Source of the DNA: Octopus vulgaris
Taxonomy: Eukaryota
Length of the DNA: 64,000 bases
Direction of reading: 5' to 3'
Assembly (NCBI GenBank): GCA_951406725.2
Contig: OX597842.1
Span: forward strand, 9,610,001 to 9,674,000
The position numbers and the translations under genes are program-made. This document shows positions 47,473 through 58,578 of this stretch, one piece after another (the stretch's first letter is position 1; every line of letters starts with the position of its first letter). The notes beneath the pieces were generated by a model. The model had not been told where the DNA came from, did not search any database, and saw only the letters and a list, made by a program, of their open reading frames with translations.

Positions 47473-47550
47473 ATGGCGGAAAAGGCTACACTCGCTTACC
47501 TACAAGGGGCCACTCTCAAGACCTTAGGTGATGACCCTAAGGAGTTTGGG
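47473..47550 (+). CDS. PRXL2A: PRXL2A/SelU coding exon 1 ([26 protein letters not shown]); the exon begins at 47396 with 5'UTR
   Basis: Polypyrimidine tract plus TACAG acceptor ending 47395; ATG at 47473 in context ACAATGG; in-frame TGA upstream at 47446 and 47416; GTGAGT donor at 47551; matches the KAALEYLEDIDLKTL..PRTF segment of PRXL2A. Confidence 0.85.
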
Positions 47551-48887
47551 GTGAGTATGTGTATATATATACACACGTGCACATTTATATGAAATGATCG
47601 TGATTTGTGTGTATGTGTTATGTCTCTCTCTTCATGTATATATGTGTGTATGGTTGTGTATCTCTATTCATATGTATGTATGTGTGTGTTTGTATGTACT
47701 CCTCCTTTATGTGTTAGTGTGTATATGTTAAGACTTGTTGAGGCAAGTGAAAATCAAAATCAAAATCGATCAACATCAATGGAAATTGTAGCTGTGATAC
47801 CAGTGCCGGTGGCACCTAAGAGAACCATCCGAACGTGGCCGTTGCCAGCGCCGCCCCGACCGGCCTCCGTGCCAGTGGCACGTAAAATGCACCATCCGAT
47901 TGTGGCCGTTTGCCAGCCTCCTGGCACGTAAAAAGCACCCACTACACTCGCGGAGTGGTTAGCGTTAGGAAGGGCATCCAGCTGTAGAAACACTGCCAGA
48001 TCAGACTGGAGCCTGGCGCGGCCTTCTGGCTTCCCAGACCCCAGTTGAACCTTCCAACCCATGCTAGCATGGAAAACGGATGCTAAACGATGATGATGAT
48101 GATGATGATGATGTATGTGATTATTAAGGTGGCAAAGTGGCAGAATTGTTATCACACTGAACAAAATACTTTGCAGAATTTTGTCCATCTTAACGTCCTG
48201 AATTCAAATCCCACCAAGACTGAATTTGCCTTCCATCTTTTTGGGGTTGATAAAATAAGTACCAGTTAGGCTCTGGGGCTGATGTAATCAACTGATCCCC
48301 TCCTCCAAAATTGCTAGCCTTGTGCTAAAATCTGAAACCATTGTTATTAATACTAGGGTGGCAAGCTGGCAGAATTGTTAGCACGCTGGACGAAACACTT
48401 AGCGGTATTTTGCCCATTGCTACATTCTGAGTTCAAATTTCACTGAGGTCGACTTTGCCTTTCATCCTTTTGGGGTCGATAAATTAAGTACCAGTTGCAC
48501 ACAGGGGTCGATCTAATCGACTGGTCCCCTCCCCCAAAATTTCAAGCCTTGTGCCTATAGTAGAAAGTATTATTATTATCAAGGTGGTGAGCTGGCAGAA
48601 TCGTTAGCATGCCAGGCAAATGCTTCGTGGCTTTTCATCCGTCTTTACATGCCGAGTTCAAATTTCACGAAGGTTAGCTTTGCCTTTCATCCTTTTGGGA
48701 TCAATAAATTAAGTACCAGTTGAACACTGGGGTTGATGTACTTGACTCATACTCTCCCCTAATGTTGCTGCCCTTGTGGCAAAATTTGAAAACATTATTA
48801 TTGCATGCTAGTAGAATCATTAACTTTTATGTATGTATGTATGTATATATATATAGATATATATATAGATATATGTATATATATATT

Positions 48888-56200: not shown

Positions 56201-58578
56201 ACCTTCCAGCCTTCATCAGGTGTCTTGGGGTAATTTCGAACCTGGGTTCTCATTCCGAAGGTATTTTTCGATGTTATTATTATTCCAAGCAGTGACCCGA
56301 AAAATAATATCGAAAAATACCTTCGGAATGAGAACCCAGGTTCGAAATTTCCCCAAGACACCTGATGAAGGCTGGAGGGTATATCAGCTGAAACGTTGTG
56401 TTAACAACAAACAAAAATGAGGACAAATATCCGTTGAATGTCAATAATGTAAATATGACGATGGTGATATACTAAAATTACTACAATCTAAGTTCCTTTC
56501 CTAAAAAAGTCTCAAAACTTCTGGAATGCACCTTGTATGCTTAATTTTTGTTTTCTGTTTTATATATTTGACTCCATCTCTTTCCTTTTTCTTGTTTTAC
56601 AGGAGTTTTCGTAATTGGTCCGGCAGAAGCGGGGATTTTGCTGGATCATCGAGAAAACAAGTTCGGAGACCACGTCAAGGCGGAGCTGATCAAGTCTGTC
56701 GTGGCACAGTTCAGGGGAACAGATAAAGACAAAGGCGGAGAAGGTACAGCAGTTGTGGAGAGTGCCGTCGATGAACCGAAGAGTGCATTTGGGGGCTTCT
56801 CTGACATCACCCGTGGCGTGACCGACTCGCTGCAAGATACAGCATCTGGTGCAACGAGTATGGCCAGCCAAGTGCAACAGAACGTCACGAGCGGAATTGA
56901 GGACGCAAAGCAGAGCGCCACTGACGAGATTGATCGTGCCAAGTCAGGCGTGGCAGAAACTGCGAGCGAAATGCAGCAGGACGTAGAGAGCACGGTCGCT
57001 GAAGGGAAAAAGAGCTTAGTAAGCGGTTTCGCTGATGCACGGAAATCAGCAACAGATAGTTACAGCGGCGTGACTAGTTCATTTGGTGATGCACAGAAAA
57101 GTGCAGTGTCAGGATTCAATGAAGCGAAGCAATCTGCAGTAAAAGGATATGGAGACGCTCGTAGCGGAGTCACAAGTACCATCAGTGGTGCACAAGAAAG
57201 TGCAGTATCCGGTTTCAATGAAGCGAAGCAGTCTGCGAGTCAAGGACTCGGAGATATTCGCAGCGGCGTAACAAGCACCATCTCGGATACACAGAAAAGT
57301 GCGGTCACCGGATTCAATGAAGCGAGACAATCTGCTGTCAAAGGAGCCAGTGATATTCGCAGCGGTGTAACCAGCACCGTGTCCGATGCGCAGAAAAGTG
57401 CAGTAACAGGATTCAATGAAGCGAAGCAATCTGCTGTCAAAGGAGTCGGAGATATCCGCAGTGGCGTAACCAGTACAGTCTCTGATGCACAGAAAAGTGC
57501 AGTCACTGGATTCAATGAAGCAAAACAATCTGCTGTCAAAGGAGTTGGAGATATCCGCAGCGGCGTAACCAGTACAGTCTCTGATGCACAGAAAAGCGCA
57601 GTCACCGGATTCAACGAAGCGAAGCAATCTGCGGTGCAAGGAGCCAGTGATATTCGCCGAGGTGTGAGCAGCACTGTGAGCGATGCACAAAAGAGTGCAA
57701 CATCTTCATTCAATGAAGCAAAACAATCGGCTGTCCAAGGGGCCGGAGATATTCGCAGCAGCGTTACAGGTGCGATTAGCGAAACACAAAAAAGTGCAGC
57801 GTCTGGACTCGATGATGCAAAGCAGTCAGCGATGCAAGGGTACAGTGACATTCGTAGCGGAATAAGCAGCACCGCCAGTGATGCACAGAAAAGTGCAGTC
57901 ACAGGATTCAATGAGGCGCGAAAATCTGCAACTGATAGCATTGGTGACATTCGCAGTGGTGTGACCAGCTCGGTAAGCAGTGCGCAGAAGAATGTAGTAT
58001 CTGGAATCAATGATGCCAAACAATCTGCATCCCAGGGCCTTGGTGACATGCAGCAAAAGGTGACAGCCTCTGTTGCTGATGTGCAACGGAGCAGCGCATC
58101 TAGTTTTTCGTCAGCCAAGCAAGGCCTCACCTCCGGTGTTTCCAGTGCAAAGGGCAGCTTCAACACTGCCAAGGACGATGCGGCGAGCACTTTCTACGAT
58201 GCCAAGCAGTCTCTCGACGACAGCGTGTCGTCATCCAAGCAAGCAGTCTGCGAGAGTGCAAACACCGTTCGTTCGGACGCAGATGCTGCAAAGAACCAAC
58301 TAGCAAGCAGCGTCCAGTCGGCAAAGGATCTCGGTTCAGAAACTGCAGACAAAGCGAAACAGACCACGACCACAGAGGCAGCCGGTCTTAAGGGCACCCT
58401 AGACAAGTTCACCAAGGACCTGCCTGGCAAGGAAGATTTCCAAGAGGCCCTGGACATGGCTAAAGAGGTCGGCAAAGAAGAAATAAAAGATGTTATTGAA
58501 CAAGTAAAAACCACAGCCGGGACTGCAGTATCGGATTATACGACGCAGTTCACCGATAAACTTGGTTCCTGGAGTTAA
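47473..58578 (+). CDS. PRXL2A: Selenoprotein U / peroxiredoxin-like 2A (FAM213A family) with UxxC motif, fused to a ~600-aa 11/33-mer amphipathic repeat tail; 5 coding exons, 2400 nt, 799 aa
   Basis: Manual splicing of join(47473..47550,49878..49952,50637..50771,53470..53605,56603..58578), all GT-AG with phases 0,0,0,1, gives [59 protein letters not shown]...[17 protein letters not shown]...[33 protein letters not shown]. This is colinear with human PRXL2A as recalled (ELWEKNGAVIMAVRRPGCFLCREEA, GEIFLDEKKKFYGP, GEGFILGGVFVVG, GILLEHREKEFGDKV). Confidence 0.93.
48127..48795 (+). mobile_element. Three tandem SINE family B copies in the first coding intron
   Basis: Three head-core-tail units separated by (ATT)n. 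Confidence 0.75.
49878..49952 (+). CDS. PRXL2A: PRXL2A/SelU coding exon 2 with Sec codon TGA at 49935-49937 (U46) and Cys49
   Basis: TTTTCACAG acceptor and GTAAGC donor; translates [24 protein letters not shown]. Confidence 0.93.
50637..50771 (+). CDS. PRXL2A: PRXL2A/SelU coding exon 3
   Basis: TTTTCAG acceptor and GTAAGT donor; [45 protein letters not shown]. Confidence 0.92.
50785..51178 (-). mobile_element. SINE family A in SelU intron 3, adjacent to the truncated end of the RPL13 pseudogene
   Basis: Full reverse copy. Confidence 0.8.
51200..51990 (-). pseudogene. RPL13: Processed pseudogene of 60S ribosomal protein L13 (eL13), N-terminal ~120 codons, split by a SINE
   Basis: [29 protein letters not shown]...[15 protein letters not shown] | [41 protein letters not shown]...[11 protein letters not shown] matches eL13 motifs (HFHKDWQ, APRP, GRGFSLEEL, TIGISVD, LQANVQRLKEY); intronless, many substitutions at conserved sites, 3' part missing. 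Confidence 0.9.
51389..51806 (+). mobile_element. SINE family B (partly duplicated) inserted into the RPL13 pseudogene
   Basis: GCCTTTCATCCTTTCAGGGTCGATAAATTAAGTACC core twice; 9-bp TSD GACATGTAA at 51380-51388 and 51807-51815. Confidence 0.85.
52124..53400. repeat. 27-bp minisatellite (TACACCACACATCCACCATTTCGTACG)n, roughly 45 copies
   Basis: Directly visible tandem unit; 9-aa periodic translations in all frames. Confidence 0.95.
53470..53605 (+). CDS. PRXL2A: PRXL2A/SelU coding exon 4
   Basis: TCTTTGTAG acceptor and GTAAGT donor (phase 1); [45 protein letters not shown]. Confidence 0.9.
54800..55840 (-). mobile_element. Degenerate, fragmented mariner (Tc1/mariner) transposase remnants
   Basis: Minus strand reads HTPYSPDL, then a frameshift to [31 protein letters not shown] (~55520-55640) and [16 protein letters not shown] (~54910-54970); this fits the mariner YSPDLAPxD motif and C-terminus. 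Confidence 0.7.
55850..56450. mobile_element. Three Penelope-like terminal-repeat fragments (two forming an inverted pair) with minimal hammerhead motifs
   Basis: Copies at ~55850-55985 (-), ~56156-56280 (-) and ~56303-56450 (+); CCTGATGAAGGCTGG...TCAGCTGAAACGTTGTG signature. Confidence 0.65.
56603..58578 (+). CDS. PRXL2A: Terminal coding exon: end of the PRXL2A domain plus LEA/perilipin-4-like repeat tail
   Basis: TTTTACAG acceptor; [31 protein letters not shown] continues without a stop into the 646-aa ORF (56638-58578) and ends at TAA. Confidence 0.9.
57088..58077 (+). repeat. Ten tandem 99-nt (33-aa = 3 x 11-mer) coding repeats, consensus [33 protein letters not shown]
   Basis: Exact 99-nt periodicity (GAT codons at 57088, 57385, 57484, 58078), flanked by more degenerate 11-mers. 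Confidence 0.92.

Follow-up and report, generated by a model that had tools for sequence, protein, structure and literature searches.

We have discovered a gene of Octopus vulgaris in which a selenoprotein U (SELENOU) redox domain continues, in frame, into a tail of about 615 amino acids built from amphipathic 11-residue repeats. The gene occupies positions 47473 to 58578 of a 64,000-nucleotide stretch (hereafter the window; GenBank assembly GCA_951406725.2, contig OX597842.1, positions 9,610,001 to 9,674,000, forward strand). The tail is encoded entirely in exon 5, where it follows the PRXL2A fold; transcript contigs join exon 4 to exon 5 and read on into the repeats, which have the periodicity of an 11/3 helix and are under selection at the protein level. 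Judged by its sequence, the protein is a member of the SELENOU family with an architecture that appears to be new. On balance, we lean narrowly toward a cytosolic selenocysteine (Sec) oxidoreductase that a convergent helix like that of perilipin-4 (PLIN4) would keep at the surface of lipid droplets or membranes.

The gene model consists of five exons with GT-AG boundaries throughout, in-frame joins (phases 0, 0, 0 and 1) and an open reading frame (ORF) of 799 codons with a predicted product of 82.6 kDa. Its single internal UGA is codon 46, and the U-S-M-C motif at codons 46-49 (UGA-Ser-Met-Cys) supplies the U/C-x-x-C redox motif. Residues 48-171 align without gaps to P0010, a database protein of the AhpC-TSA_2 family, with 66 of 124 residues identical (53%), and the exon model is supported by this alignment because it spans the exon 2/3, 3/4 and 4/5 junctions. 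P0010 ends 13 residues beyond the aligned part, while the octopus gene runs on for about 615 amino acids, which agrees with an earlier sequence-only reading in which the last exon finished the PRXL2A fold and continued in frame. The features of the gene are listed below; X9 is a sequencing run described in the next paragraph, and SECIS stands for selenocysteine insertion sequence.

47397..47472, + strand: likely 5' untranslated portion of coding exon 1, behind an acceptor AG that ends at 47396 (predicted from sequence)
47473..47550, + strand: coding exon 1, aa 1-26, with no signal peptide or transmembrane stretch
49878..49952, + strand: coding exon 2, aa 27-51, carrying UGA codon 46 and U-S-M-C
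50637..50771, + strand: coding exon 3, aa 52-96, AhpC-TSA_2 domain (PF13911 match)
53470..53605, + strand: coding exon 4, aa 97-142, joined to exon 5 in 4/4 runs and 48% identical to P0010
56603..58578, + strand: coding exon 5, whole, with GT-AG boundary and stop TAA at 58576-58578
56603..56730, + strand: start of exon 5, aa 142 to about 184, completing the PRXL2A fold (70% identity to P0010 over 30 aa)
56731..57087, + strand: exon 5, short linker, then an acidic amphipathic stretch of degenerate 11-mers, aa ~185-303, within the spliced contigs
57088..58077, + strand: exon 5, ten 33-mers in tandem with a period of 99 nt, predicted 11/3 helix core, aa 304-633, reached by X9 contigs to 57971
58078..58578, + strand: exon 5, degenerate 11-mers and acidic helical C-terminus, aa 634-799, with sampled words present in runs
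60453..60544 (core 60471-60518), + strand: form-II SECIS-like element from a pattern-and-energy scan, 1.9 kb past the stop

Evidence for transcription was drawn from 22 listed runs, 20 of which contained at least half of the sampled sequence words of exon 5; in 14 runs from five studies, whose status as RNA was guessed, the share was 0.90-0.96. The RNA origin of the runs is evidenced by the spliced joint rather than by the run records. Contigs of four runs (four studies, three organism labels) were aligned to 53430-58700. In all four, one contig joins exon 4 to exon 5 across a GT-AG intron of 2997 nt and extends to 57438-57492, with flat depth through 56743. The sequence-only reading had named two outcomes that would undo the fusion, namely an exit from exon 5 near 56743 as the only isoform and a tail transcribed separately; all four runs read straight through the former, and the latter is contradicted by a single spliced contig that carries both exon 4 and the tail. 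Overlapping contigs of X9 extend this cover to 57971 (aa 598), with breaks at the sites of the only duplicated 30-mers of exon 5. The contigs also extend 368-598 nt upstream of exon 4, which leaves room for exons 1-3 (288 nt) and an untranslated region (UTR). As for the earlier expectation of five exons on one transcript, what is observed is that exon 4 joins exon 5 and that the contigs run onward into the repeats, as far as 57971.

Several points weigh against a fully expressed fusion. Positions 57972-58533 lack a contig in 4/4 runs, three of which have no contig cover from 57654 onward, a donor-like site begins at 57973, the alignments cover exons 4-5 with exons 1-3 lying outside them, and contigs lose rare isoforms. 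In two of the runs, X4 and X13, 43% of the query is uncovered by contigs, yet 0.94 and 0.90 of the words are present; these shares are incompatible with a missing 43% of the query, and a contig filter is therefore the likelier cause of the gap. No joint leading out of exon 5 was found among the joints listed, with 219 lesser ones outside the list. We are highly confident that the fusion is expressed.

The core of the tail, aa 304-633, is composed of ten 33-mers with no insertions or deletions. These had been described as exact repeats, which holds for their length and fails for their sequence: pairwise identity ranges from 13 to 33 of 33 residues. Repeats 4 and 5 are the sole pair identical in protein, and their 92/99 matching nucleotides leave differences that are all synonymous. 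Self-identity of the core is 0.69 at a period of 33 and 0.21 at a period of 11. The other descriptions given in the sequence-only reading were confirmed by measurement. Proline is absent from aa 201-748; the charged register is fixed, with Asp/Glu at 28/30 of one 11-mer position and Lys/Arg/Gln at 30/30 of another; small residues (G+A+S+T) make up 51% of the core; and the hydrophobic moment of the core is maximal at 98.2 degrees, the 11/3 angle, where it reaches 0.30 as compared to at most 0.10 in 500 shuffles. Ala and Val make up most of the apolar face, and the adjoining position has Gly in 18/30 cases. Degenerate 11-mers flank the core and are likewise amphipathic, with moments of 0.35 (aa 205-303) and 0.22-0.25 per 33-mer (aa 634-732). 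A single-sequence AlphaFold model, the structure prediction that had been suggested, is nearly all helix, at low confidence (predicted local distance difference test, pLDDT, 53; predicted template modelling score, pTM, 0.22).

Differences between the repeats number 379, 224 and 742 at codon positions 1, 2 and 3, respectively. The proportion of synonymous differences (pS) is 0.58-0.64 and that of nonsynonymous differences (pN) is 0.13-0.20, unlike a neutral DNA satellite; because pN is far below pS, the protein sequence of the tail is under selection. Nine variant sites in the run contigs comprised five synonymous changes (aa 402-428), four missense changes and no stops.

Searches with the tail returned no true homologue. 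One gave six matches of 21-32% identity among 8000 candidates scored, and a larger one gave 315 matches; among the 150 listed (14-34% identity), none had its best stretch over the PRXL2A part, and none of the tail matches listed had a PRXL2A domain at the inclusion threshold. ESM Atlas yielded no usable match to the tail, and in the octopus genome (2.8 Gb in 227 contigs) the other matches to the repeats were simple satellites or low-complexity ORFs only. The libraries lacked even near-identical octopus proteins and yielded no full-length mollusc sequence of use, which makes these negatives weak evidence on distribution in molluscs. Among the 12 best-scoring matches, nine had a phage tape-measure family as best or main PHROG match, and the best scores were compositional.

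One tail match, P0026, is a Pfam-confirmed perilipin with 33-mer repeats. It is 23% identical to the tail by pairwise BLAST but close to it in physical measures: the moment is 0.30 in the octopus core and 0.25 in the P0026 repeats, G+A+S+T content is 51% and 53%, large hydrophobic residues make up 9% and 10%, net charge per 33-mer is +0.4 and +0.7, and both lack Pro. Charges are arranged alike in the two: basic residues border the apolar face along one of its edges, and acidic residues are found toward the back of the polar face. The likeness to PLIN4 put forward in the sequence-only reading is therefore upheld in period, moment, small residues and one-sided charge. With identity at 23% alongside this physical match, the tail is probably convergent with PLIN4. 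For human PLIN4, the available text of two papers attributes lipid-droplet targeting to length, low hydrophobicity and one-sided charge (PMC5889406, PMC8064757).

Against a lipid-binding tail stand a mean hydrophobicity of 0.11 in the octopus core versus 0.27 in P0026, the presence of 17 Arg, the use of Ser where PLIN4 has Thr, acidic flanks (-2.3 per 33 residues at aa 205-303), and the occurrence of the same periodicity in proteins with no lipid role, such as the phage tape-measure proteins among the best matches. The same papers report, in the parts available, that droplet binding of PLIN4 is lost upon T to S or K to R substitution or lowered hydrophobicity (PMC5889406, PMC8064757). The genome also has a separate perilipin of its own. 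We regard the PLIN4 likeness of the tail as a strong lead, not proof.

The Perilipin family of Pfam (PF03036: PAT domain, four-helix bundle) has no match in the octopus protein. A genome-wide PF03036 search matched another contig rather than this locus (G000:C12, about 75.426-75.435 Mb; L016 and L018), where a PAT-domain exon scores above the Pfam cut-off and short exon-like ORFs occur with no long 11-mer arrays. This locus was tried as a donor of the tail and rejected, as tblastn found no match to the tail in about 31 kb; this favors growth of the tail de novo, through tandem duplication. An uninterrupted 542-aa ORF with the look of a helical repeat lies at L020:7244-8870, about 27 kb away from the PAT exon.

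The apolar positions of the tail follow a 3-4-4 pattern, and one alternative is that the tail forms a right-handed (hendecad) coiled-coil stalk or filament, which would oligomerize or space the redox domain and have no role with lipid. The predominance of phage tape-measure proteins among the best-scoring look-alikes would fit such a stalk, as would the long helices modelled by AlphaFold with no lipid present. We consider it unlikely, since a face of mostly Ala and Val, together with adjoining Gly and an abundance of small residues, makes a poor core for a stable coiled coil, and the look-alikes, at 14-34% identity, match in composition.

Improbable to a similar degree is a tail that acts like group 3 late embryogenesis abundant (LEA) proteins or synucleins, binding bilayers or vesicles or stabilizing proteins under osmotic, cold or oxidative stress. 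The 11-mers are hydrophilic (mean hydrophobicity 0.05-0.12) with motifs rich in Ala, Lys and Gln, features in which we take the tail to resemble LEA proteins. On the other hand, no Pfam LEA family (LEA_4) matches the octopus protein, and 33-mers conserved over 330 residues with no insertions or deletions are the pattern of PLIN4.

The protein might instead carry an unfound upstream signal-peptide exon and be a secreted, apolipoprotein-like redox protein on hemolymph lipoprotein or yolk particles. Mammalian PRXL2A has an N-terminal leader or transmembrane segment and is ER-bound or secreted (ER, endoplasmic reticulum), according to PMC4632174 and PMC12267542, and an alternative acceptor would start the first octopus exon at 47463 and permit an in-frame upstream exon. 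Invertebrate members of the family are not known to need such a segment. The ORF of exon 5 also exceeds the cut-off of the Apolipoprotein family of Pfam (PF01442; 103 bits, cut-off 90), a match that would suit a lipid-bound cytosolic tail as well, but this score is spread over nine stretches and is probably compositional, and the repeat core alone scores 64.7. With the acceptor at 47396, the ATG at 47473 comes after three in-frame stops. The highest 19-residue hydropathy in the whole protein is 1.44, with no signal peptide or transmembrane stretch, and a scan of the 47 kb upstream revealed no credible signal exon: the six candidate ATG-to-donor hydrophobic exons all lie in a microsatellite-like stretch at 11.5-11.8 kb. 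We consider secretion quite unlikely.

Least probable, and to our minds very much so, is that the tail is incidental, with the work done by a shorter isoform or by an N-terminal domain released through processing, or with the last third of the exon spliced out: the strong donor-like site one base past the X9 contig end, the uncovered 57972-58533, the possible loss of rare isoforms from contigs and two runs of one organism with only 0.64-0.65 of exon 5 words speak for it, but splicing at 57973 would end the contig at 57972 rather than at the observed 57971, no listed joint leaves exon 5, the X4 and X13 word shares point to the contig filter, and the frame stays open and amphipathic up to the stop with pN far below pS.

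The redox domain was assigned as follows. P0010 scores 66 bits against AhpC-TSA_2 (PF13911; cut-off 27), and octopus exon 3 alone gives an E value of 9e-4, below the cut-off. Single-exon ORFs in other assemblies (P0007-P0009) are 82-84% identical to exon 3 and come with no genomic context. The best solved relative of P0010 is prostamide/prostaglandin F synthase (SelU3), which is distant (E 1e-7). From its motifs, we take the gene to be SELENOU1/PRXL2A rather than SELENOU2/3. This assignment fits PMC3473315, in which invertebrate SelU1 proteins carry Sec, and PMC13134290, in which SELENOU1 is the Sec-bearing branch of vertebrates. SelU3, a human paralogue family, reduces a lipid endoperoxide (PMC3473315). 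A short paralogue, which the sequence-only reading had proposed to look for, was sought exon by exon in the genome and none was found: searches with exon 2, exon 3 and P0010 (9, 1 and 3 candidates scored, respectively) were significant at this locus only. Two metagenome scans gave no related locus.

For the Sec reading of the UGA, the presumed 3' UTR offers the SECIS-like element as a candidate. It has AUGA, a 9-bp helix II, an unpaired run of A about 13 nt past the core, a 3-bp mini-helix and a 3' GA. Of seven candidates in 84 kb (both strands), it scored best (-14.7 kcal/mol; the next, -7.1), and when the 3.4 kb past the stop were shuffled 300 times, no shuffle gave a candidate of equal quality. 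It is single-copy, with AATAAA signals downstream at 60725 and 60834. Two observations count against it: Rfam searches of 56000-64000, of the contig's next 20 kb and of the surroundings of the candidate gave no SECIS, and the unconstrained minimum-energy fold of the candidate is a competing hairpin. A genome-wide SECIS_1 search found none among 129 scored of 47,867 candidates and hence provides no control. We infer that UGA 46 is read as Sec, and a dependence of tail synthesis on selenium can be soundly inferred.

At 60464-60485, the AUGA core of the candidate also fits the loop of the competing minimum-energy hairpin, which has 5 bp. A second hairpin, at 58577-58625, was rejected as a SECIS, as its UGA lies in ordinary base pairs and its core-to-core distance is too short; it also failed the pattern scan. 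This stable hairpin (z -3.4) starts at the stop codon and has AATAAA in its loop (58597), where polyadenylation would produce an mRNA lacking the distal SECIS candidate, possibly as a regulatory switch. An in-frame ATG lies two codons past the UGA (49935-49945), where automatic annotation would probably begin, and a start there could in principle give a Sec-less form that still bears the tail. Under standard annotation, the UGA would cause a gene of this kind to be cut short or misplaced.

Other elements were noted in the introns and downstream. Intron 3 contains a processed pseudogene of RPL13 (eL13) on the minus strand (51057-52000), in two pieces separated by two copies of a 184-nt repeat (51436-51803), and, directly upstream of exon 4, a satellite (52117-53348; 27-nt unit x46, 91% matches) that yields long, meaningless ORFs in every frame. 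In intron 4, a near-perfect long inverted repeat at about 56140-56440 resembles a miniature inverted-repeat transposable element, with one arm repeated at about 55870-55980; its microRNA-like hairpin scores are below Rfam cut-offs, and it is plentiful in RNA contigs. A cluster of splice-donor-like sequences on the minus strand of the presumed 3' UTR (about 60110-60150) may mark an exon that belongs to an antisense or convergent gene. Two tandem fragments at 62579-63199 have no Pfam match and resemble the end of a reverse-transcriptase ORF of a long interspersed element (LINE).

We propose that this SELENOU1/PRXL2A gene, the sole one that the genome searches revealed, had its last exon extended by tandem duplication, first of 11-mers and then of 33-mers. 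UGA 46 would be decoded as Sec by means of the SECIS candidate, some 1.9 kb into the presumed 3' UTR, and the product would be a cytosolic protein of 83 kDa. Its tail, probably unfolded in solution, would fold on a lipid surface into a single 11/3 helix of great length and weak hydrophobicity. Many weak contacts of Ala, Val, Ile and Phe on one face would retain it there, and one-sided Lys/Arg and Asp/Glu could pack neighboring helices, as shown for PLIN4. The U-x-x-C thioredoxin-like domain would thereby be held at the droplet surface or, failing that, at membranes, and may reduce peroxides, lipid endoperoxides or protein disulfides there; the tail would substitute for the N-terminal anchor or leader of mammalian PRXL2A. 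A bolder version, which we offer only tentatively, is that octopuses independently evolved a PLIN4-like coat on a selenoenzyme, a selenium-gated protein that both coats droplets and guards their contents, rich in polyunsaturated fatty acids, from peroxidation, with the ER or secretory anchor swapped for a giant reversible helix. If so, selenium supply would control droplet coating, as the helix is encoded past the UGA.

Should the tail bind lipid, the 33-mer helix of the PLIN4 type would have arisen independently here, providing a natural test of the proposed rules of droplet targeting (length, weak hydrophobicity and one-sided charge), with Ser, Ala and Arg replacing Thr, Gly and Lys. SELENOU1, whose function is described as unclear in the available part of PMC3473315, would gain a lipid-surface address and a testable class of substrates, and a structural module of 750 residues would be placed downstream of a Sec codon. 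In the literature searched, most subscription papers lying outside it, no description of a SELENOU-repeat tail fusion was found, nor any paper pairing selenoprotein U or FAM213A with octopus. The portion of the supplement of PMC13134290 that was searched has no octopus entry, its SELENOU tree and the alignments of PMC3473315 being outside the scope of this comparison.

Among known systems, SELENOU1/PRXL2A (FAM213A, C10orf58, PAMM, adiporedoxin) shares the AhpC-TSA_2 thioredoxin-like domain, the U/C-x-x-C motif and a Sec form (reported for invertebrate SelU1, predicted here) with the octopus protein, which differs by its approximately 615 additional C-terminal residues and, from the mammalian PRXL2A proteins, by a model with no N-terminal leader or transmembrane segment. 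Selenoprotein fusions are known as lineage-specific domain additions (algal SELENOM-pVHL, SELENOM-ShKT and GST-MSRA; amphioxus 3NSelP), and those given in the available text of PMC7539508 and PMC3473315 include none with SELENOU or a lipid-binding repeat helix. The exchangeable apolipoproteins A1, A4 and E (PF01442) are alike in their amphipathic 11-mer repeats, whereas the octopus tail has a period of 33, no Pro-punctuated 22-mers and, in our model, no signal peptide. PLIN4 is the closest parallel in design, with 33-mers (3 x 11) free of insertions and deletions, no Pro, small residues, and similar moment, net charge and one-sided basic residues. The octopus tail is less hydrophobic, has Ser/Ala for Thr/Gly/Val, allows Arg, and contains 10 repeats as compared to 29 in the human protein, and it is fused to an enzyme. 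The octopus protein is not a perilipin by membership, but, by analogy, it probably works like one.

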